DNA of 61,706 nucleotides from Candidatus Omnitrophota bacterium (lineage in GTDB: Bacteria > Omnitrophota > Gorgyraeia > Gorgyraeales > Gorgyraeaceae): positions 1-61,706 of the forward strand of contig JBHPHU010000005.1 of assembly GCA_042571405.1 (NCBI GenBank). The letters run 5' to 3'. A program made the translations under genes and the position numbers. The stretch's first letter is position 1. Each line of letters starts with the position of its first letter. This document shows, one piece after another, positions 17,765-60,450 of this stretch. The notes below the pieces were generated by a model. That model was not told the DNA's origin. It did not search any database and was given only the letters and a program-made list of their open reading frames with translations.

Positions 17765-17819
17765 ACCTCTCCGACCTCGTAGGTCGACCTACGAGGTCGA
17801 CCTACGAGGTCGGAGAGGT
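17765..17819. repeat. Palindrome family A, three 13-bp units (55 bp, 26-bp stem)
   Basis: ACCTCTCC-GACCTCGTAGGTC-GACCTACGAGGTC-GACCTACGAGGTC-GGAGAGGT. Confidence 0.9.
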
Positions 17820-17830
17820 GAAAGAGGGAT

Positions 17831-19255
17831 ATGAAGACAAAGGTCGCGATTTATAAACAGCATAGTTTGCGTTATTCAAACAGGCCGCCGTATTCTCCGC
17901 CGGCAATATTTCCGGAATACCCTTTTGAAGATAAGAGGGTTGACGCAGAGAATGAGGCATATTTTTCGTTAAGGGAGTTATTTAAGATGTTAGATCTTGA
18001 TTCTGAGAATTTTGGAAAAAAGCACTGGAATCCTCTTTCTTTTCTCGTGTCGCCGGGTCAAACAGTGCTTTTGAAGCCAAACCTCATGAGACACTTTGCT
18101 GACAAGGGAGCTACGAATAAGTTGATCACGCATGGCTCTATAATCAGGGCAATCGCGGATTATGTATATATTGCCTTAAAGGGCAAAGGAAGGATTATTA
18201 TTGCTGATGGCCCTATGGACGAGGGAGATTTCGGAAAGATTCGCAGGATCGCGGGCCTGGATAAGATAGAAAGATTCTATAGTGAAAGCGCTGATTTTGA
18301 TATCGAGGTATATGACTTGAGACAGGAACAGGTATTCAAGAAAGGCAATGAGATTATCCGCAGGATAAAACTACCCGGTGATCCTGCAGGCTATACGGCT
18401 GTTGACTTGTCCAAAGAGAGCAAGTTTAAAAACGATTCGCTGGACTATACGACGTTCAAGGGAAGCGAATGCATAAGTTCTATTATGAATGCCCACCACA
18501 ATGATAAGAAGAACGAATATCTTATATCCAATACATTGCTCAATGCAGATGTGGTAATCAACATTCCCAAGCTCAAGACACATAACAAGGCCGGAGTTAC
18601 ACTGGCTCTTAAAAATATGGTAGGCATTACAGGAGATAGAAATTGGCTACCGCATTTTAAATACGTTTCATCAAAATCTCCCTGTACGGACGCGTTGTCC
18701 GGACACCGCGTCCGTACAGGTTATGGACAGCTTACGAAGTTGACCAATAAAGGGGTTATGAAATATCTCAAGGATAAGATAAAAGAAGTGAGAGGCCTAA
18801 GGGATTCTGATATAAAAAAGGGCAACTGGTATGGAAATGATATTATCTGGAGGACGATCTTAGATCTATTACAAATAGTTATGTATGCGGATAAAAAAGG
18901 CAAGGTCCGTGAAAAAGCACAGCGCAAGAGTTTTTTTATTGTGGACGGCATAGTCGGAGGAGAAGGAGATGGCCCTATGAATCCTGATCCAAAGCCGTGC
19001 GGTGTTTTAATCGCTGGTTTTGACGGTCCATGCGTAGATATGGCAGCAGCCAGGCTTATGGGATTCGATCCTATGCGCATCCCGCAATTAAAAAACTCTT
19101 CAAGCAATGATAGCAATAACGTGTACAAGGACATAAAGGCTGTATCTAATTTACGCGATTGGAATGGATTTTTATCTCAGTTTAAAGGCAGGTGCCTGGG
19201 TTTTAAGCCATTTTATGGATGGAGGCATCATATAGAGGTAAGAGATGGCGAGTAA
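17831..19255 (+). CDS. DUF362 domain protein
   Basis: VLLKPN, INIPKLKTH..AGVTLALKNMVG and DGIVGGEGDGP motifs. Confidence 0.85.
   Translation: MKTKVAIYKQHSLRYSNRPPYSPPAIFPEYPFEDKRVDAENEAYFSLRELFKMLDLDSENFGKKHWNPLSFLVSPGQTVLLKPNLMRHFADKGATNKLITHGSIIRAIADYVYIALKGKGRIIIADGPMDEGDFGKIRRIAGLDKIERFYSESADFDIEVYDLRQEQVFKKGNEIIRRIKLPGDPAGYTAVDLSKESKFKNDSLDYTTFKGSECISSIMNAHHNDKKNEYLISNTLLNADVVINIPKLKTHNKAGVTLALKNMVGITGDRNWLPHFKYVSSKSPCTDALSGHRVRTGYGQLTKLTNKGVMKYLKDKIKEVRGLRDSDIKKGNWYGNDIIWRTILDLLQIVMYADKKGKVREKAQRKSFFIVDGIVGGEGDGPMNPDPKPCGVLIAGFDGPCVDMAAARLMGFDPMRIPQLKNSSSNDSNNVYKDIKAVSNLRDWNGFLSQFKGRCLGFKPFYGWRHHIEVRDGE
18681..18720. repeat. Palindrome family B, variant copy, in frame in the DUF362 gene
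   Basis: CCTGTACGGACGCGTTGTCCGGACACCGCGTCCGTACAGG with one mismatched pair. Confidence 0.9.
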
Positions 19256-35229: not shown

Positions 35230-35386
35230 CACGACCAAGATCGAACTGAAATTCCGCAAACTTCCCAATGACCCAAATATGTTCGAGTTCACAGTAAGCT
35301 CGCCATTATTGCGTTCGCAATTCTGCGTACCCAGAGCCATAATCAACCAGCTCCGCGTAGACCTGGAAAAGGCCCTTACGCATTAG
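35222..35386 (+). CDS. Small hypothetical protein (54 aa, not in the ORF track)
   Basis: GGAGG RBS at 35211; MSNTTKIELKFRKLPNDPNMFEFTVSSPLLRSQFCVPRAIINQLRVDLEKALTH*; overlaps the upstream stop. Confidence 0.55.
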   Translation: MSNTTKIELKFRKLPNDPNMFEFTVSSPLLRSQFCVPRAIINQLRVDLEKALTH

Positions 35387-35421
35387 TAGGGGACCCTTAA
35401 GGGTCCCCTACATTGTGGATA
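35384..35421 (+). repeat. 38-bp direct repeat copy 1, containing a perfect 26-bp GTAG-ended palindrome
   Basis: TAGTAGGGGACCCTTAAGGGTCCCCTACATTGTGGATA, identical to 43541-43578. Confidence 0.92.
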
Positions 35422-35473: not shown

Positions 35474-37039
35474 TTATAACCCGTATTTTAGTCTTGGCAT
35501 TAATTTTAGGGCTGCGTCTTTTACTAATTTTATATCTAATAGTTGTATCCAATGCCTATTGTCAGGAGGGAGGGAGGCTATATAGTTATTAATGTCTCCG
35601 GAGGCCAGCCTAAAAAGTATGTCTTTTTCAGAATCATATACATTAATGTAATCACCTATCGCTATTTTTAGATCGTATTTTGTATCTATCAAAAACCCGT
35701 TCATATATCTGTGTCTTTTGTTTAAAGTCCCCGCGAAAATATCTTTATTCAGAGCCAGCTTAAATACAGGGTCTACTACCCAGTCTTCAGAAAAAAATTC
35801 TATATGCCCGATCGGGCCGTATTTACTGTATTGATTGCCGGACACATAAATAACCTTGTTGTCTTGGTATTCATTGAGATCCTGGTTGTTTTTTATGTTT
35901 GTTATAATTCTCTGCTGATGCGCGTTCCAGGTTTTCCAGTGGCCTGAAATGCCCAGGATCGTAAAGATTATCAGCGCGAAGACCAGGGTCTTTATTTTTT
36001 TTGACGCAGGCATTAACACAATAAGGTACGTAAATAGTAATGACCCATAGATAGTAGTTCTATTGCCAAGATTAAAGGCCAACTGTGGATAACGGCCGGT
36101 AACAGCAAACATCAAGAAAGAAGAAAATACCAGGACCATAAGACTTATAATGAGTTTTTTACCCATTCGACCTCGTAGGTCGACCTCGTAGGTCGACCTA
36201 CGAGGTCGAATGGGGTCTAATTTATAAAAAATTACTACAAGGGTAAGGCCTATTGTTAATGATATCAATGATATCTGAGAGAAAGAATAATATATTTTTA
36301 GCCACATCGAAGGTCCGCACATGGAGTCTATAAAGGTTAGGACTTGTAATATAAATTGCTTGATCACGATAGAGACGCTTATTTCTTCGATTATTCTGGG
36401 ACTGCCCATGCGAAACAGTATATTTATAGGGATGAAATACAGCGCATAAATAATGTTAGGAATAATTATAACAGCGCCTTTTTTAAATTCCTTATTTAAC
36501 GCGAATAAAACGAATAGCCCTAGTGCGATCGGGGGAGTGCCGTAAGATAGAAACGAGGCGATCAAGGCTGATAAAAAGGCCGGGATCAGTTTATTGCGAT
36601 GCGCCAAATAAAAAGCGAATAGATACAGGCAAAATGATATGCTGATGTATTGTATCATGAATGAATATACCGTAGAGTCATGTGAAGGAAAGAAGATAAA
36701 CAAAAAAGATGCCCAGAGGGCAGTGTATCTATTTAGAAAGATGTTAAAAAATCCGATCACTAAACAAAAAGATAAAATAGTGTAAAAGATTTTCAGGATA
36801 TTAACAAGGAGTGGATTGTCTATTCGAAACCAATAATACCATATGTAATGGCTAAAATGTTCTATTGGCGTCTCAATAAAATAGCCGTCGGGAATAAGCA
36901 CATCCTTGATATCTTTATTCTCGAGTTTAACCATTACGGCAAAATCATCCGCGCTAAGCCCCGTATTTATCAAAAGATAAGCTATCAGAATAAGACATGA
37001 AAGAAGCAGTAGATTTTCGACCTTAAAGACTTTTTTCAT
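35474..37039 (-). CDS. Polytopic membrane protein, GT-C-like sugar transferase
   Basis: ADD after TM1, about 11 TMs and a soluble C-terminal domain; last gene of an amino-sugar cassette. Confidence 0.55.
   Translation of the reverse strand: MKKVFKVENLLLLSCLILIAYLLINTGLSADDFAVMVKLENKDIKDVLIPDGYFIETPIEHFSHYIWYYWFRIDNPLLVNILKIFYTILSFCLVIGFFNIFLNRYTALWASFLFIFFPSHDSTVYSFMIQYISISFCLYLFAFYLAHRNKLIPAFLSALIASFLSYGTPPIALGLFVLFALNKEFKKGAVIIIPNIIYALYFIPINILFRMGSPRIIEEISVSIVIKQFILQVLTFIDSMCGPSMWLKIYYSFSQISLISLTIGLTLVVIFYKLDPIRPRRSTYEVDLRGRMGKKLIISLMVLVFSSFLMFAVTGRYPQLAFNLGNRTTIYGSLLFTYLIVLMPASKKIKTLVFALIIFTILGISGHWKTWNAHQQRIITNIKNNQDLNEYQDNKVIYVSGNQYSKYGPIGHIEFFSEDWVVDPVFKLALNKDIFAGTLNKRHRYMNGFLIDTKYDLKIAIGDYINVYDSEKDILFRLASGDINNYIASLPPDNRHWIQLLDIKLVKDAALKLMPRLKYGL
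36162..36214. repeat. Palindrome family A, three units, in frame in the membrane-protein gene
   Basis: The 39-bp core is the exact reverse complement of 17773-17811; encodes RPRRSTYEVDLRGR. Confidence 0.9.
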
Positions 37040-38566: not shown

Positions 38567-39514
38567 TTACGATCTTTTTTCTATATAAAATAACGGGCGT
38601 TTGCGTGATTCGTCTAAATTACGCCAGAGATATTCCCCTATTATGCCAAGCATTATCATTTGGATGCCCCCTAGAACTAATACCACCAGCATTACGAGCG
38701 ACCAGCTTTCTATAGGACTATTTGTAATTACTTTCAGCGCTATATATAAAATACCTGAAGCCAAGATAAATAATCCTGTGATACACATTAAGATCAATGG
38801 TGATCCTGAAAAACCTATTAACCAGTCTTTTGCAAGGCCTATGTGAGTTTTGAAACTCCATTTTGATTTGCCGGACATTCGAGTACGGCGTTCATATTCT
38901 ACAGAGTCCTGGCTGAAACCAAGCCATGTTATAAGACCTAACAGTGAAGTGTTGCGCTCCGTACACTCATTGAGCGCGTTTACAGCAGTTTTATCCAATA
39001 AACAGAAATCAGCTTTGGATATATCGATATTGGTTTTACCCGTACCTCCTAACCATGCCAGGATTTTATAGAAGAGTTCAGCTTTTTTTCTGGTATTGAA
39101 TGGTTCGTTATGCCTGTCTTTTCGAACCGCCCAGACTACTTTAGCGCCATTGCGCCATTTTTTTAACATATCCTCGAGGCAGGCTGGGTTATCCTGGCCA
39201 TCAGCAGAGATATATAGCACTATGTTGCCGGCAGCTTCTTTTATACCGGCGCGTAATGCAATATGACTGCCGGATCGCTTGCTTAATCTCAGACATTTTA
39301 CCCTCGAGTCGTGCATTCCTTGAACAACGTCAAATAAATCGTCAGAGGAGTGGTCATCCACCACAATGATTTCAAAGCTGTCCTGTACAGATGCGGTGTC
39401 TAGACACCGCATCTGTACAGGGTCCAAGTTTTCTAATGTTGTAAAGAGTTCATTGATAGTAGTTTTGATATTTTTGGCTTCATTGTAAGCGGGGATTACT
39501 ATAGATATATTCAT
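38567..39514 (-). CDS. GT2 polyprenyl-phosphate glycosyltransferase (GtrB/ArnC-like)
   Basis: IVIPAYNE, VDDHSSD, ADGQD, two C-terminal TMs and GIIGEY...RPLF. Confidence 0.88.
   Translation of the reverse strand: MNISIVIPAYNEAKNIKTTINELFTTLENLDPVQMRCLDTASVQDSFEIIVVDDHSSDDLFDVVQGMHDSRVKCLRLSKRSGSHIALRAGIKEAAGNIVLYISADGQDNPACLEDMLKKWRNGAKVVWAVRKDRHNEPFNTRKKAELFYKILAWLGGTGKTNIDISKADFCLLDKTAVNALNECTERNTSLLGLITWLGFSQDSVEYERRTRMSGKSKWSFKTHIGLAKDWLIGFSGSPLILMCITGLFILASGILYIALKVITNSPIESWSLVMLVVLVLGGIQMIMLGIIGEYLWRNLDESRKRPLFYIEKRS
39382..39421. repeat. Palindrome family B, perfect 40 bp, in frame in the GT2 gene
   Basis: CCTGTACAGATGCGGTGTCTAGACACCGCATCTGTACAGG; encodes DPVQMRCLDTASVQ. Confidence 0.95.
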
Positions 39515-39515
39515 A

Positions 39516-40169
39516 TTATATTGCCTTTCGCATTACTTTCGCTGGATTACCTGCCGCGATCACGCCTTCTTCGATATTAGAGATAACATTTGAGCCTAGC
39601 CCTACCAGGCTCTTTTTTCCAATGGTGATATTTTCGCGTATTTTTACGCCTGAGCCGATATAAGATTCAGGAGCGATAGTGACATTTCCTGAAACTGTTA
39701 CATTGGAACCAATACAGCAGTAATCGCCTATCACGCTATCATGTGAGATAACAGTATTCGGTAATATTATGCAGTGTTTACCTATCTTTACGCCGCAGCT
39801 TATCACGACATTGGGCATCAAGATTGTATTGTGCCCAATCGTTGAGTCGTTAGATACCGTAACAGTAGGGTGGATGATTGTTGCGAAGCTGGAATCCGCT
39901 ATATCTAAACTTTCAATGATATCCTTGCGTTTTAAATAACTATCAGGATTGCCTGGGGCCGCAAGAATCTGAGCGTCCGGGAATTTTTTAAGGATTTCTC
40001 TGCCGCCCAAGACTTTTATTCCAGAGCAGTCTTTTCCCCATGTTAAAGGGTTGTCATCAATAAAACCCATGATCTTCCATTGTTCTTCAATTCTGTTGAT
40101 AGCCAGAATGGAGAGGAGGGATTCTCTTGTGTTGCCGCCAAAAGGAAATAGGATAATTTTCTTTAACAT
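39516..40169 (-). CDS. Sugar acetyltransferase (NeuD/PglD family, hexapeptide repeats)
   Basis: GFIDD, IIHP, SHD, left-handed beta-helix repeats and GNPAK. Confidence 0.88.
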   Translation of the reverse strand: MLKKIILFPFGGNTRESLLSILAINRIEEQWKIMGFIDDNPLTWGKDCSGIKVLGGREILKKFPDAQILAAPGNPDSYLKRKDIIESLDIADSSFATIIHPTVTVSNDSTIGHNTILMPNVVISCGVKIGKHCIILPNTVISHDSVIGDYCCIGSNVTVSGNVTIAPESYIGSGVKIRENITIGKKSLVGLGSNVISNIEEGVIAAGNPAKVMRKAI

Positions 40170-40182
40170 AGGAAATTATATT

Positions 40183-40247
40183 GATCCGCCAAAAAGCATG
40201 GCGAGATCTGCGCAAAATCTAGCCTTCGGCTGGATTTTGCTCGACAT
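40183..40247 (+). repeat. Double-hairpin element family C
   Basis: 62/65 nt identical to 52283-52347; supplies the last codons and TAG of the aminotransferase gene on the - strand. Confidence 0.92.
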
Positions 40248-41388
40248 TTTTTATTACATCTATAATTTTTTCAACCTGCTCGTATTTAATTTCATAAAAG
40301 AGAGGCAGAAGGATAACTGTATCTCTGGCTAATTCAGAATTATGCAGTGTTATATTAGAGGCATAAGCTGGTTCCTGATGGATATTCATAATACCTCTGC
40401 GCGTTGAAATACCAGCATCCAGTAAATACTGCATGAGCTTATCACGTTTCATGGGAGAATTGTCCAGCAGTCTTGCAGGATAACTTTGCCAATTGGTCCT
40501 GCAGTAGAGCGGCTCATGAGGTAATTTCAACCAGCTGACATCTTTTAATCCCTCAGCGTAAAGATTAGCCAACTCTTTTCGTTTAGACAGGATCTCAGGT
40601 AACCTCTTTAACTGCACAATACCTATCGCCGCCTGTATGTCAGACATGCGGTAATTATAACCTGGCGTAATATACTCTTCAAATATGACCTTTTTCGCGC
40701 TATGTCTTAATAAGTCTGATATATTCATGCCGTGATGTCTGAGCAGGCGAATTTTTTTATCATAGTCGGGATTATTAGTAGTGATCATTCCGCCTTCACC
40801 TGTAGTAATTACTTTGCGTGGATGAAAACTGAAGCATGCAATGTCACCATGCGGTCTGCCGATTTTTTCCAATGTTTTTTTGTTGTCTATCGAGATCTCG
40901 CTGCCAGCCGCGCATGCGGCGTCTTCAATAACAGGGAGGTTGAATTTACACGCAAGGGCTAAAATGGGTTTTAGATCGCAAGGCATTCCCATTTGATGGA
41001 CAGGCATTATTGCGGCTACATTGCGAGTTCCGCAGTTCTCACGCAGGCATTTTTCAAGAGAAGCAGGGGACATGTTAAAGGTATCGATATCTATGTCAAC
41101 AAAAACTGGTTCTGCATTGCAATGCCTTATGCTGTTGGCTGTTGCGATGAAAGAATGGCTTACTGTTATTACGGCATCTCCTGGCTTTACTCCAGCGGCA
41201 ATAAGCGCTAAATGTAACGCAGATGTACAGCTGGAAACAGCGCAGGCATACTTTGAACCAACATAGGACGCAAAGGTCTCTTCAAATTCTTTAACCTTTG
41301 GCCCCTGAGTCACCCAGGCGGAAAGTATTGTTTCTCTTGCGGCAGCAGCTTCTTCTTCTCCAAGAAATGGTTTAGCGAAATCTATCAT
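40219..41388 (-). CDS. DegT/DnrJ/EryC1/StrS sugar aminotransferase
   Basis: SSCTSALH, IEDAACA, FSFHPRKVITTGEGG and GYNYRMSD motifs. Confidence 0.93.
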   Translation of the reverse strand: MIDFAKPFLGEEEAAAARETILSAWVTQGPKVKEFEETFASYVGSKYACAVSSCTSALHLALIAAGVKPGDAVITVSHSFIATANSIRHCNAEPVFVDIDIDTFNMSPASLEKCLRENCGTRNVAAIMPVHQMGMPCDLKPILALACKFNLPVIEDAACAAGSEISIDNKKTLEKIGRPHGDIACFSFHPRKVITTGEGGMITTNNPDYDKKIRLLRHHGMNISDLLRHSAKKVIFEEYITPGYNYRMSDIQAAIGIVQLKRLPEILSKRKELANLYAEGLKDVSWLKLPHEPLYCRTNWQSYPARLLDNSPMKRDKLMQYLLDAGISTRRGIMNIHQEPAYASNITLHNSELARDTVILLPLFYEIKYEQVEKIIDVIKNVEQNPAEG

Positions 41389-41407
41389 AGGGTGTTTCCA
41401 ATGTTTG

Positions 41408-42448
41408 TTATTCCCAATTAATGCCTTTTTCTTGCCCGAGTAATACTAGAGGTGGCTCCGGCCTTGATTTAAACCACTCGATTGTTTTAATAAGCCCTTG
41501 TTCAAATGAAACCTCAGGCTGCCACTCTGTTATCTTTCTGAACGCGCTTGTATCCGCAAATAAACGCAGCACATCCCCGGGTCTATTTTTAACATGGTTT
41601 ATGCCCTGTACAGATGCGGTGTCTAGACACCGCATCTGTACAGGGTCTTGGGCATTGATTATATTTAAAATCATTTCTGCTACTTGTTTGATCGAGATTT
41701 CAAAGTCGCTTCCCATATTAAGCGTAAGTCCGATCGCTTCATCGTGTTTTGCCGCTTTGATAAAGCCATTTGCAGTATCTTCTACGAAAGTATAGTCACG
41801 CGTTTGAGAGCCATCTCCAAAAATAATAATAGGTTCTTTGTTGAGGGACCTGACAATAGACTTAGGTATTATTTCTCCCGCATCTCCTTCATGATGCGAT
41901 CGCGGCCCATAAACGTTAAAAGGCCGCATAACTACGGTTTTCAGTCCATAGGTTTTGTGATATGCGCGCGTGTATGCTTCACCTGCCAGTTTGCTTGCCC
42001 CGTATACAGTAGAGGGGTGGGTCGGGTGTGATTCTGACATGGGGACATAATGCGCAGTTCCGTAGACCTCAGAAGAAGAGGAGTGGATGAATTTTTTAAC
42101 TCCAGCCTTGAGAGCCTCTTGTAAGACCATAAGGGTTCCTTCGGCATTAACGCAATGGCTCTCAAAGGGATGTTTGATCGAATGGCGGACCCCCAGGCAC
42201 GCAAGGTGAAAAACAATATCTATATCTTTCATGGCCTTGATTATCTCAGGCGACTCAGTAATACTCCCTAAAATAAATTCAAAGCAGTTGTTGTTTCTAT
42301 GATGGTCTAAATTTCCAAGTTTACCATTACGCAGGTTGTCAATAACACGGACATAACAACCTTCTTTGACCAGAGTGTCTACTAAATGTGAACCAATAAA
42401 GCCAGCGCCGCCAGTAACTAAAACTTTTTTACCTGATAGCTCCATCAT
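41408..42448 (-). CDS. NAD-dependent sugar epimerase/dehydratase (extended SDR)
   Basis: TGGAGFIG, SSSEVYG, YGASK, RPFNVYGP and GDGSQTRD motifs. Confidence 0.92.
   Translation of the reverse strand: MMELSGKKVLVTGGAGFIGSHLVDTLVKEGCYVRVIDNLRNGKLGNLDHHRNNNCFEFILGSITESPEIIKAMKDIDIVFHLACLGVRHSIKHPFESHCVNAEGTLMVLQEALKAGVKKFIHSSSSEVYGTAHYVPMSESHPTHPSTVYGASKLAGEAYTRAYHKTYGLKTVVMRPFNVYGPRSHHEGDAGEIIPKSIVRSLNKEPIIIFGDGSQTRDYTFVEDTANGFIKAAKHDEAIGLTLNMGSDFEISIKQVAEMILNIINAQDPVQMRCLDTASVQGINHVKNRPGDVLRLFADTSAFRKITEWQPEVSFEQGLIKTIEWFKSRPEPPLVLLGQEKGINWE
41604..41645. repeat. Palindrome family B, perfect 42 bp, in frame in the epimerase gene
   Basis: 41605-41647 is identical to 39382-39424; encodes DPVQMRCLDTASVQ. 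Confidence 0.95.
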
Positions 42449-43508: not shown

Positions 43509-43540
43509 CTAAATTAGTAATCTATGCTATTACGGCTTAG

Positions 43541-43578
43541 TAGTAGGGGACCCTTAAGGGTCCCCTACATTGTGGATA
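43541..43578 (+). repeat. 38-bp direct repeat copy 2
   Basis: Identical to 35384-35421; 12 bp from the comM stop; runs into TGTGGATAA (43571-43579). Confidence 0.92.
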
Positions 43579-49778: not shown

Positions 49779-52274
49779 ATGAGCGAATTTTATCCTTTTA
49801 AGAAAATCGAGAAGAAGTGGCAGAAGGCATGGGAGAGGCAGGGGCTTTTTAAGATGGACCCCGAGTCTTCCAAGGATAAGTATTATTGCCTGATGATGTT
49901 TCCGTATCCGTCTGCCTCATTGCATGTAGGACATGGCAGGAACTATATTATAGGAGATGTTGTAGCGCGTTACAAGATCATGCATAAGCTTAATGTCCTG
50001 GCGCCAATGGGCTGGGACGCGTTTGGTCTTCCCGCAGAAAATGCTGCTATAAAAAGCGGCATCCACCCCAAGATTTCTACATTAAATAATATAAAGACAA
50101 TGAAGAAACAGCTCAATGCCTGGGGCGTGGGGTATGACTGGGATAGAGAGATCGCTTCATGTATGCCTGATTATTACAAATGGACACAGTGGATATTTTT
50201 AGAGCTCTATAAAAAGGGCCTTGCCTATAAGAAAAAAGCTCAGGTCAATTGGTGCCCCTCTTGTCAGACAGTGCTTGCAAATGAGCAGGTAGTGGATGGC
50301 GCGTGCGAAAGGTGTTCCGCTGAAGTTGAGCTGCGTAGTCTCGAACAATGGTTTTTCAAGATAACTGATTACGCGCAGAGGCTTCTGGATGATTTGAGTC
50401 TGTTAAAGGATTGGCCGGAGCGGGTAAGGATCATGCAGAAGAACTGGATCGGCAGGAGCGAGGGCGTTGAGATAGATTTTAAGCTCGCAGATGATGGTCA
50501 AGGCGAAACCTCCGCCAGCTTAGCTGGCGGAGGTTTCGCCTTGACGTGTTTTACCACCAGGGTGGATACAATCTATGGCGCTACATATATGGTGCTTGCC
50601 GCGGAACATCCAATGGTTGAGGAGCTTATAAAAGGTTCTGATAAAGAAAATGATATAAAAAAATTCATCGCAGACGTTAAAAAGGAAAGTTTTACGGACA
50701 GGGTTTCAGCTACTGCTGAGAAAAAAGGCGTATTTACAGGCAGATTTGTCATAAACCCCGTGAATGGTAAAAAGATCCCGCTGTGGATTTCGAATTATGT
50801 GCTGATGGAATATGGTACAGGCGCGGTAATGGCAGTGCCTGCGCATGATGAGAGAGACTTTGAGTTTGCGAAAAAGTATGACTTAGAGATAGTGGTTGTG
50901 ATCGATAATCCAAAAGAGCGCCTTGATGCAAAGAGCATGAAACAGGCTTTTGTAGAAGAAGGGGTTATGGTGAATTCCAGCCAATTCAATGGCCTGCCAA
51001 GTCTTGAGGCAATTGAAAAAATCTCAGATTATATGGAAAAAGAAAAGATAGGAAGAAGAAAGATCCATTATAAACTGCGAGACTGGCTTATCTCCAGGCA
51101 AAGGTATTGGGGCGCGCCCATACCTATGGTGTATTGTGAAAAATGCGGCATACAGCCGGTAGATGAAAAAGATCTTCCGGTTCTTTTGCCTGAAAAGGTT
51201 AAGTTTAAACCTCGTGGTGAATCGCCATTAAAAGATGCGGAGAGTTTTGTCAATACAAAATGCCCTAAATGTAAATCCAAAGCTCGACGAGAAATCGACA
51301 CAATGGATACATTCGTGGATTCTAGCTGGTATTTTCTGAGATTCTTATCTCCAAAAAACAACAAAAATCCTTTTGATAAAGAATTAGTCAATAAGTGGCT
51401 TCCTGTAGATCAATATATCGGAGGCGTGGAACATGCGATTCTGCATTTAATGTATTCAAGATTTATCGTAAAGGTGCTTCATGACTTGGGTCACGTGGGT
51501 TTTAAAGAACCATTCGCCAAACTCTTTACACAGGGGATGATCGTAAAAGACGGCGCAAAGATGTCCAAGTCAAAAGGCAATGTCGTGAGTCCTGACGCGC
51601 TTATAGAGAAATACGGCGCGGACACAGTGAGGTTTTACACATTGTTTATCGGCCCGCCTGAAAAAGACGCGGAGTGGAATGATCGCGGCGTCGAAGGCGC
51701 GTGGAGGTTTCTTAACCGAGTGTGGCGACTTGTGGAACGGGATACGGGGAACGGGATACGGGGAACGGGGGATGGAAATAAAATTTCATCTCTTAAGCGA
51801 AAGACACATTTTACTATTAAAAAAGTTACAGAAGATATAGAAGGCGCTTTTCATTTCAATACAGCATTAAGCGCGATAATGGAATTAGTAAATGAGATTT
51901 ATTCTATCCCGAATCCCGAATCCCGAATCCCGAATCCCGAATTAAAAAAAGCCATAGAAACAGTCGTGATCCTCCTTGCGCCTTTTGTGCCGCATATTGC
52001 TGAGGAGATGTGGGAGATATTAGGGAATAAAAAGAGCGTATTTGAAGCAGACTGGCCGGGATATGACGAGGCTGCGCTTGTTCAGGATAGGATCACCATG
52101 CCGGTTCAGGTAAATGGCAGGGTGCGCTCAAGGATAGAAGTTGGATCAAGCGCGGATGAAGAAGAGATAAAAAAGATTGTCATGGAAGATCCCCTGGTTA
52201 GTAAATGGACCCAAGGCAAACCACCCAAGAAAATTATTGTTGTAAAAGGAAGATTAGTAAATCTCGTGGTATAA
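49779..52274 (+). CDS. leuS: Leucine-tRNA ligase
   Basis: MFPYPS..LHVGH, GTGAVMAVPAHDERD, DWLISRQRYWG and KMSKSKGN motifs. Confidence 0.98.
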   Translation: MSEFYPFKKIEKKWQKAWERQGLFKMDPESSKDKYYCLMMFPYPSASLHVGHGRNYIIGDVVARYKIMHKLNVLAPMGWDAFGLPAENAAIKSGIHPKISTLNNIKTMKKQLNAWGVGYDWDREIASCMPDYYKWTQWIFLELYKKGLAYKKKAQVNWCPSCQTVLANEQVVDGACERCSAEVELRSLEQWFFKITDYAQRLLDDLSLLKDWPERVRIMQKNWIGRSEGVEIDFKLADDGQGETSASLAGGGFALTCFTTRVDTIYGATYMVLAAEHPMVEELIKGSDKENDIKKFIADVKKESFTDRVSATAEKKGVFTGRFVINPVNGKKIPLWISNYVLMEYGTGAVMAVPAHDERDFEFAKKYDLEIVVVIDNPKERLDAKSMKQAFVEEGVMVNSSQFNGLPSLEAIEKISDYMEKEKIGRRKIHYKLRDWLISRQRYWGAPIPMVYCEKCGIQPVDEKDLPVLLPEKVKFKPRGESPLKDAESFVNTKCPKCKSKARREIDTMDTFVDSSWYFLRFLSPKNNKNPFDKELVNKWLPVDQYIGGVEHAILHLMYSRFIVKVLHDLGHVGFKEPFAKLFTQGMIVKDGAKMSKSKGNVVSPDALIEKYGADTVRFYTLFIGPPEKDAEWNDRGVEGAWRFLNRVWRLVERDTGNGIRGTGDGNKISSLKRKTHFTIKKVTEDIEGAFHFNTALSAIMELVNEIYSIPNPESRIPNPELKKAIETVVILLAPFVPHIAEEMWEILGNKKSVFEADWPGYDEAALVQDRITMPVQVNGRVRSRIEVGSSADEEEIKKIVMEDPLVSKWTQGKPPKKIIVVKGRLVNLVV
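50497..50545. repeat. Perfect 24-bp-arm palindrome in frame in leuS
   Basis: GTCAAGGCGAAACCTCCGCCAGCT-T-AGCTGGCGGAGGTTTCGCCTTGAC. Confidence 0.95.
51734..51942. repeat. Pair of mutually complementary 7-bp tandem arrays in leuS
   Basis: (GGAACGG/GATACGG)x5 at 51734-51768 and (ATCCCGA)x5 at 51906-51940. Confidence 0.88.
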
Positions 52275-60331: not shown

Positions 60332-60342
60332 TAACAATATAA

Positions 60343-60450
60343 TTCCAAATGTCAAATGACAAAATCCAAATGAATAATTTAAATCCAAATAATTAAATTA
60401 TTTGTCATTGGGTGATTCATTTGTCATTTGGGATTTGTCATTTGGGATTT
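60343..60450. repeat. Inverted pair of 7-bp arrays (NNCAAAT / ATTTGNN) between lptE and holA
   Basis: TCCAAAT GTCAAAT GACAAAA TCCAAAT ... ATTTGTC ATTTGGG ATTTGTC ATTTGGG. Confidence 0.85.

Follow-up and report, generated by a model that had tools for sequence, protein, structure and literature searches.

The window analyzed here, a stretch of 61,706 bp from a Candidatus Omnitrophota bacterium, is contig C5 of a 1,156,007-bp, 60-contig assembly (G000) that is estimated to be 60% complete. Two enzymes encoded on its minus strand contain the same short peptide, and the DNA that encodes this peptide is a palindrome; the subject of this study is the palindromic element, the repeat family to which it belongs and the candidate transposase with which the family is associated. 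The first host gene (38567-39514, minus strand) encodes a family-2 glycosyltransferase (GT2) of 315 amino acids (aa) with a match to Pfam Glycos_transf_2 (PF00535, 88 bits), and the second (41408-42448, minus strand) encodes an extended short-chain dehydrogenase/reductase (SDR) of the epimerase/dehydratase type with 346 aa (Pfam Epimerase/GDP_Man_Dehyd, PF01370/PF16363, 209/221 bits). A string of 43 nt (CCTGTACAGATGCGGTGTCTAGACACCGCATCTGTACAGGGTC) is identical at 39382-39424 (copy 1) and 41605-41647 (copy 2). In these two long open reading frames (ORFs) the copies are carried by the coding (minus) strand, and at both the frame of the host gene gives the 14-aa peptide DPVQMRCLDTASVQ, which corresponds to residues 31-44 of the GT2 and residues 268-281 of the SDR.

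Each of the two copies is a perfect palindrome with a spacer of 0 nt, with arms of 20 nt in copy 1 (39382-39421) and 21 nt in copy 2 (41604-41645). Three more common bases (GAC) extend beyond the palindrome on one side, which is the 5' side on the coding strand in both copies. The identity ends abruptly: the flanks diverge at the first base on one side and immediately past the GAC on the other, and a slightly longer register of 46 nt (39379-39424 and 41602-41647) contains a single base difference. The 38-nt core is present twice in the window but in none of 100 dinucleotide shuffles. As DNA hairpins, copy 1 and copy 2 are predicted to fold at -22.3 kcal/mol (z-score -8.9) and -24.4 kcal/mol (z-score -10.8), respectively. 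The copies are 2223 bp apart in the same orientation and form the nearest pair in the genome. The initial annotation of the window had claimed a 43-bp identity, an in-frame position and a common peptide in both enzymes, together with an asymmetric GAC flank, and all of these are borne out by sequence comparison and ORF translation.

The positions that had been assigned to the two inserts within the enzymes, after helix 1 and before the FEIIVVDD strand in the GT2 and just before the RPGD motif in the SDR, agree with an AlphaFold2 model and with the alignments. In the GT2 model, which was based on 15 aligned sequences and has a mean predicted local distance difference test score (pLDDT) of 81.8, the insert lies between helix 1 (residues 13-28) and strand 2 (residues 47-53, FEIIVVDD), and the pLDDT drops below 50 at residues 37-41 within the insert. 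The last residue of the SDR insert is located seven residues upstream of RPGD. Compared with its homologues, the GT2 is 11 aa longer than 14 out of 14 sequences (56-63% identical), all of which share one loop length, and the SDR is 12 aa longer than 13 out of 13 sequences (63-72% identical). The segment in the SDR is also extra relative to 11 out of 11 more distant relatives (35-40% identical).

A total of 68 perfect palindromes (arms ≥12 nt, spacer ≤6 nt) were identified in the assembly, compared with 0, 0, 1, 0, and 0 in five first-order Markov simulations of the same contigs, and these palindromes group into a few sequence families. The family of the window copies was collected with a mismatch-tolerant half-site search and has 13 full copies on seven contigs, which belong either to a short class (38-nt core, abutting halves) or to a long class (47-nt core, GCC-NNN-GGC at the center). 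The units are 42-51 bp long and fold, as single-stranded DNA, at -22 to -33 kcal/mol (z-scores of -8 to -13 relative to shuffles). A variant half-site is present on both arms in only 2 of the 13 copies, the two in the window, which are therefore each other's closest relatives; this exclusive variant is consistent with a recent common origin.

Outside the assembly, three copies of the family were found in a genome of the same genus (G001, 97% complete). The genomes of 39 other relatives contain only single half-sites with three mismatches, on par with a reversed-pattern control, and a half-site scan of 185,579 species genomes returned just five single, unpaired matches in unrelated taxa, which is the level expected by chance. 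The same scan of a metagenome collection returned nine single matches and one true locus (contig L103). On the basis of these sequence searches the family is lineage-specific, and among the collections scanned it is found in one genus alone. The best matches to the GT2/SDR cluster in two genomes of the same genus are 32% and 40% identical, and no close orthologue is present; in related genomes the values for GT2 and SDR are 32% and 42%, and the closest relatives anywhere are about 61-63% and 70-72% identical, respectively. Since the two genomes of the same genus have no close counterpart of the cluster and the family was found in this genus alone, both insertions were probably made in this lineage.

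The copies of the family start with (T)AGACC-CTGTACAG. GACC is located immediately 5' of the core in 6 of the 13 copies, four of which have the longer TAGACC, and in all five intragenic copies among these six it lies 5' of the core when read along the host gene. As far as the sequence pattern goes, the asymmetric GAC of the window copies is part of a conserved, one-sided head. The possibility that GAC represents a target duplication was considered separately and rejected: it flanks the GT2 copy on either side, whereas the SDR copy does not have it on both sides.

Comparable length differences were observed at other copies. The RACo gene on contig C22 has an orthologue in G001 (92% identical) that is without the copy, with a net difference of 45 nt (+15 aa). 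The GH94 protein is 9 aa longer than its orthologues within the genus, the DUF362 protein 8 aa longer than its G001 orthologue (82% identical), and the linker of a radical-SAM/DUF6873 protein 5 aa longer than its orthologues within the genus. For two further hosts, a polysaccharide deacetylase (contig C26) and a membrane protein (window positions 35474-37039), no orthologue was found in the genomes searched.

A link between the repeat family and a transposase gene was found in G001, where two copies of the family (L030 1481-1521 and 2178-2219) bracket an ORF of 211 aa (L030 1541-2176). The encoded protein scores 29.6 bits against Pfam Y1_Tnp (cut-off 23), aligns to the E. coli transposase TnpArep (4er8, E 0.004) across the HUH (PTHIHL) and YI..NP (YIHLNP) motifs, and is 59% identical to a transposase encoded on contig C8 of G000. 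Metagenome contig L103 contains an identical 211-aa ORF together with both palindromes and represents an independent assembly of the same arrangement. A transposase gene bracketed by two copies of one family is the REPtron layout that is known from repetitive extragenic palindromic (REP) elements, their doublets (REPINs) and the associated tyrosine transposases (RAYTs). G000 itself contains six IS200-like Y1_Tnp (PF01797) genes, all above the curated cut-off (contigs C13, C9, C38, C27, C6, and C8), and the genes on C8 and C27 are each enclosed by two copies of one palindrome family; these are two families other than that of the window copies. Among 18 relatives of the C8 transposase in the species-genome collection, perfect palindromes are present on both sides of the gene in seven, on one side in four and on neither side in seven, and each relative has a palindrome sequence of its own. 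Eight of the 18 relatives are titled Omnitrophota or Omnitrophica, a name that is also attached to several of the GT2 and SDR homologues. Among the other Y1 genes of G000, those on C9 and C38 have inverted, imperfect repeats with a GTAGGG head as flanks; the gene on C27 encodes 301 aa with a long C-terminal extension, and its flanking palindrome family is richer in AT.

The majority of the copies of the window family are intragenic (11 out of 13, within ORFs of 292-4140 aa). Across all families, 19 of the 68 perfect palindromes are located deep inside ORFs of at least 200 aa, seven near the end of an ORF and 42 elsewhere. A Pfam family was found for 18 of 22 palindrome-bearing ORFs tested across all families, and the host proteins are unrelated (GT2, SDR, RACo, GH94, radical SAM, DUF362, and others). 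The 11 intragenic copies of the window family are distributed 9:2:0 over the three frames: nine are read as (D)PVQ..ASVQ, two as PCTDA.. and none in the third frame. The chance that at least 9 of 11 copies share any one frame is small (P about 0.004). A TAG at the center of the palindrome blocks the third frame in the window variant, and the TAGACC head, if it is part of the element, closes this frame in all copies. Because one frame is favored and another is stopped, the use of the same frame in the GT2 and SDR genes is expected and not a coincidence. The initial annotation had described the elements as mobile and frame-tolerant. With frames of 9:2:0 and a stop codon in the third, frame tolerance as stated is not supported; the other part of the description, a copied and mobile element, has good support from the 13 family copies, from the bracketing of the Y1 gene in G001 and on L103, and from the absence of the insert from homologues and orthologues.

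The explanation that we favor, with a probability of roughly 75%, is that the two window strings represent copies of a short repeat of the REP/REPIN kind, hairpin-forming and non-autonomous, whose partner is an IS200-like, single-strand Y1 (HUH) transposase, that is, a RAYT. The element is real, REP-like and probably mobilized by the RAYT. The mechanism is drawn by analogy with IS200/IS605 elements and with E. coli TnpArep (see, in part, PMC3479197): the RAYT would recognize the folded hairpin on single-stranded DNA, would cut beside the conserved head (here ...TAGACC) and would then copy or move the unit to new sites. Selection would retain an intragenic copy only if its length is a multiple of three, if it introduces no stop codon in the frame of the host and if the peptide ends up in a surface loop or a linker that tolerates it. 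As the palindrome is perfect, both orientations offer the same three possible peptides. We infer that translation of both enzymes most likely includes the element, and that it is unlikely to have a function of its own in either. Removal of the insert at the RNA level was also considered and was judged unlikely, as it would yield neither the frame bias nor lengths that are multiples of three.

Several observations weigh against this explanation. None of the six Y1 genes of G000, a genome that is 60% complete, is enclosed by the family of the window copies, so that the link to the transposase comes from the sister genome. The 18 relatives of the C8 transposase include the seven with no perfect palindrome at their flanks. 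A GTAG head defines most RAYT-linked REPs, but the head here is ...TAGACC. The net gain is smaller than the element in all six comparisons, by 1-9 residues (the unit corresponds to 13-14 aa in the GT2 and SDR and to 16-17 aa in RACo), a deficit that a clean cut-and-paste insertion does not predict. In the collections searched no near-identical empty allele was found at the DNA level, and neither a transposition event nor a target duplication was seen. Finally, both copies are known from the assembled contig alone, and the translation of the insert is something that we infer.

The identity of the two window copies could also have a different history, in which two older insertions 2.2 kb apart had diverged and then became identical by local gene conversion or ectopic recombination, in place of recent transposition. 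The close spacing and common orientation of the pair would suit such an exchange, as would the variant that is exclusive to it, and short identical palindromes can template each other. However, the identity stops sharply at the element, so that the conversion tract would need to match the element exactly, and two earlier insertions of the same family would still be required. We therefore regard gene conversion as an unlikely source of the identity.

A less probable alternative is that the palindromes were made in place, by hairpin-primed or template-switch repair at fragile sites that swapped a short stretch of the gene for a palindrome copied from elsewhere. Such repair fits a net gain that is always below the element length, so that some native codons are lost, and it fits three orthologous sites at which sister genomes carry a different palindrome. 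The first of these sites is the editing domain of the leucyl-tRNA synthetase (LeuRS), encoded at 49779-52274 of the window, where a 49-nt perfect palindrome (50497-50545, plus strand) lies in frame; G001 and a second genome of the same genus, G002, have an unrelated hairpin with 13-nt arms at the same codons, and three other genera of the taxonomic family have none. A 38-nt palindrome of another family is located in the radical-SAM linker of G002, and that other family also accounts for a single small hairpin at the GH94 site in both G001 and G002. Most of the copies that differ from one another have stayed perfect palindromes, which is what template switching across a hairpin would give. In-place repair nevertheless leaves two things unexplained, the bracketing of transposase genes by the same sequences in several genomes and the conserved asymmetric head, and it is accordingly considered improbable.

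A further step down in probability is the idea that the repeat is kept for a host function, either as a hairpin that signals at the DNA or RNA level (in pausing, mRNA processing or protein binding) or as a common peptide tag. The stability of the DNA hairpins is very high (-22 to -33 kcal/mol, with z-scores between -8 and -13), one reading frame recurs, and REPs elsewhere are reported to influence mRNA stability (in the part of Di Nocera et al. 2013, PMC3733652, drawn on here), but the host proteins are unrelated, the peptide is located in low-confidence loops and orthologues do without it. An assembly artefact, by which a collapsed or wrongly joined repeat came to stand at two sites in a contig assembled from metagenome data, would be conceivable for a 60-contig bin of 60% completeness but is highly improbable, since both host ORFs are open and align end to end with homologues on either side of the insert, and since the same family is present in frame in nine other genes, in another genome and on an independently assembled contig.

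Under the preferred explanation, a REP-like repeat mobilized by a RAYT, the different palindromes of sister species at three orthologous sites suggest that sites are re-used and that a newer hairpin replaces an older one. A more specific proposal, which is tentative and on balance doubtful, is that these REPINs have adapted to intragenic life in a small, gene-dense genome and that new copies preferentially replace older hairpins in the same loop ("parking sites"). The adaptation is backed by unit lengths that are multiples of three (38- and 47-nt cores plus 1 or 4 nt, which gives 39/42 and 48/51), by a peptide that is independent of orientation and by the predominance of one benign, hydrophilic frame. 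A preference for replacing older hairpins would lead both to different palindromes at the LeuRS, GH94, and radical-SAM sites and to a net gain below the element length. If true, the proposal would describe a turnover of selfish hairpins at fixed intragenic sites, which was not met in the part of Di Nocera et al. (2013; PMC3733652) drawn on here.

The window contains a third member of the family at 18681-18720 (plus strand), which has variant half-sites, is 96% self-complementary and is read in the second frame (SPCTDALSGHRVRTG) of a DUF362 gene (17831-19255). A sister family, the GACCTCGTAGGTC type, consists of palindromes of 53-55 nt whose arms are themselves small hairpins, and it is represented twice in the window. 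The 53-nt perfect palindrome at 36162-36214 (minus strand) lies in frame in the gene of a 521-aa membrane protein (35474-37039) and, although it belongs to a different family, is also preceded by TTAGAC on the coding strand; the 55-nt perfect palindrome at 17765-17819 is located outside long ORFs, where the longest frame that spans it has 47 aa. Further copies of the GACCTCGTAGGTC family are present at G000:C1:13656-13708 and C23:15038-15092, and those inside genes encode nearly the same peptide (P.RPRRSTYEVDLRGR.G) in proteins that are unrelated.

Other repeats were noted elsewhere in the assembly and in the window. Two palindromes of the ACCTGCCCCACTTC family (C46 561-587 and 606-634) are only 19 nt apart, in frame, inside the gene for IspG/GcpE (G000:C46:172-1245), an essential isoprenoid enzyme. 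The ORF of a thiamine-pyrophosphate enzyme (G000:C1:68724-70820) contains an intein (Pfam Intein_splicing, Hint) and has a palindrome near its 5' end. Within the window, identical classical REPs with a GTAG head are present at 35383-35421 and 43540-43578 (hairpins 35386-35411 and 43543-43568), with a common string of 38 nt that includes the tail after the hairpin. Each is located just 3' of a gene end, and together they enclose a sugar-modification cluster of about 8 kb that holds the GT2 and SDR genes. Near the end of the window (60341-60449) there is an imperfect (74%), AT-rich inverted repeat with 54-nt arms and short CAAAT/ATTTG-like units.

Among known systems, the closest likeness is to the REP/REPIN-RAYT systems, or REPtrons, of Proteobacteria and other phyla. 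Shared features are short, GC-rich, dispersed palindromes in lineage-specific families, tight inverted doublets that fold into one long hairpin, a Y1 HUH gene bracketed by its own repeat, and the presence of several families and several RAYTs in one genome. In addition to the different head and the match of the RAYT to Pfam Y1_Tnp at only about 30 bits, the elements described here differ in that the doublet is a spacer-less, perfect palindrome and in that 11 out of 13 copies are intragenic and not extragenic. IS200/IS605 elements and their palindrome-associated derivatives have the same transposase fold, with a hairpin signal instead of terminal inverted repeats and a short fixed sequence that is confined to one side. 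No direct repeat is common to the two window copies. Unlike in IS200/IS605, the mobile unit here is the hairpin only. By its position, the one-sided head can be compared with the GTAG of classical REPs or with the fixed target on the left flank of IS200/IS605 elements.

A second likeness is to the Rickettsia palindromic elements (RPE) that were reportedly described by Ogata and colleagues in 2000 (cited in PMC3733652). These, too, are selfish palindromic repeats; they interrupt functional protein genes in frame in a small genome, where they are translated as extra loops. RPE-1 units measure about 100-150 bp, and we know of no transposase that has been linked to RPEs. The units described here are 42-51 bp and are linked to a RAYT, and the two are likened by description and not by sequence.

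Intragenic palindromic repeats have thus already been described, and the behavior reported here is uncommon but known. According to the part of Di Nocera et al. (2013; PMC3733652) drawn on here, intragenic REPs of the GTAG/CGTC kind reach their highest numbers in Rickettsia conorii, whose RPE elements are counted among them, and in Opitutus terrae. Single REPs and tight dimers (1-2 bp apart in O. terrae) are reported there in frame in known proteins, where they encode roughly 20-30 aa; they sometimes occur twice in one gene, tRNA synthetases are among the hosts, and the authors read them as neutral inserts in loops or linkers. In the same part of that paper most REPs are intergenic and the phylum Omnitrophota is not covered; neither a frame bias nor different palindromes at one orthologous site were met in it, and no account of such repeats in Omnitrophota or Omnitrophica was found in the literature. 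The strong bias toward one frame and the occurrence of different palindromes at one orthologous site may be new features.

The comparison has consequences for annotation and for the study of such repeats. Common peptides of 14-17 aa in unrelated proteins of such genomes are to be annotated as repeat-derived and not as motifs. Pairs of different palindromes at one orthologous site offer a concrete route to ask if hairpin repeats target existing hairpins. With respect to known systems, the elements add a little-studied phylum, one of very small cells, to those with intragenic REPs, and, compared with the classic case of Rickettsia, which is without that link, they connect an in-frame "selfish peptide" directly to a candidate transposase.

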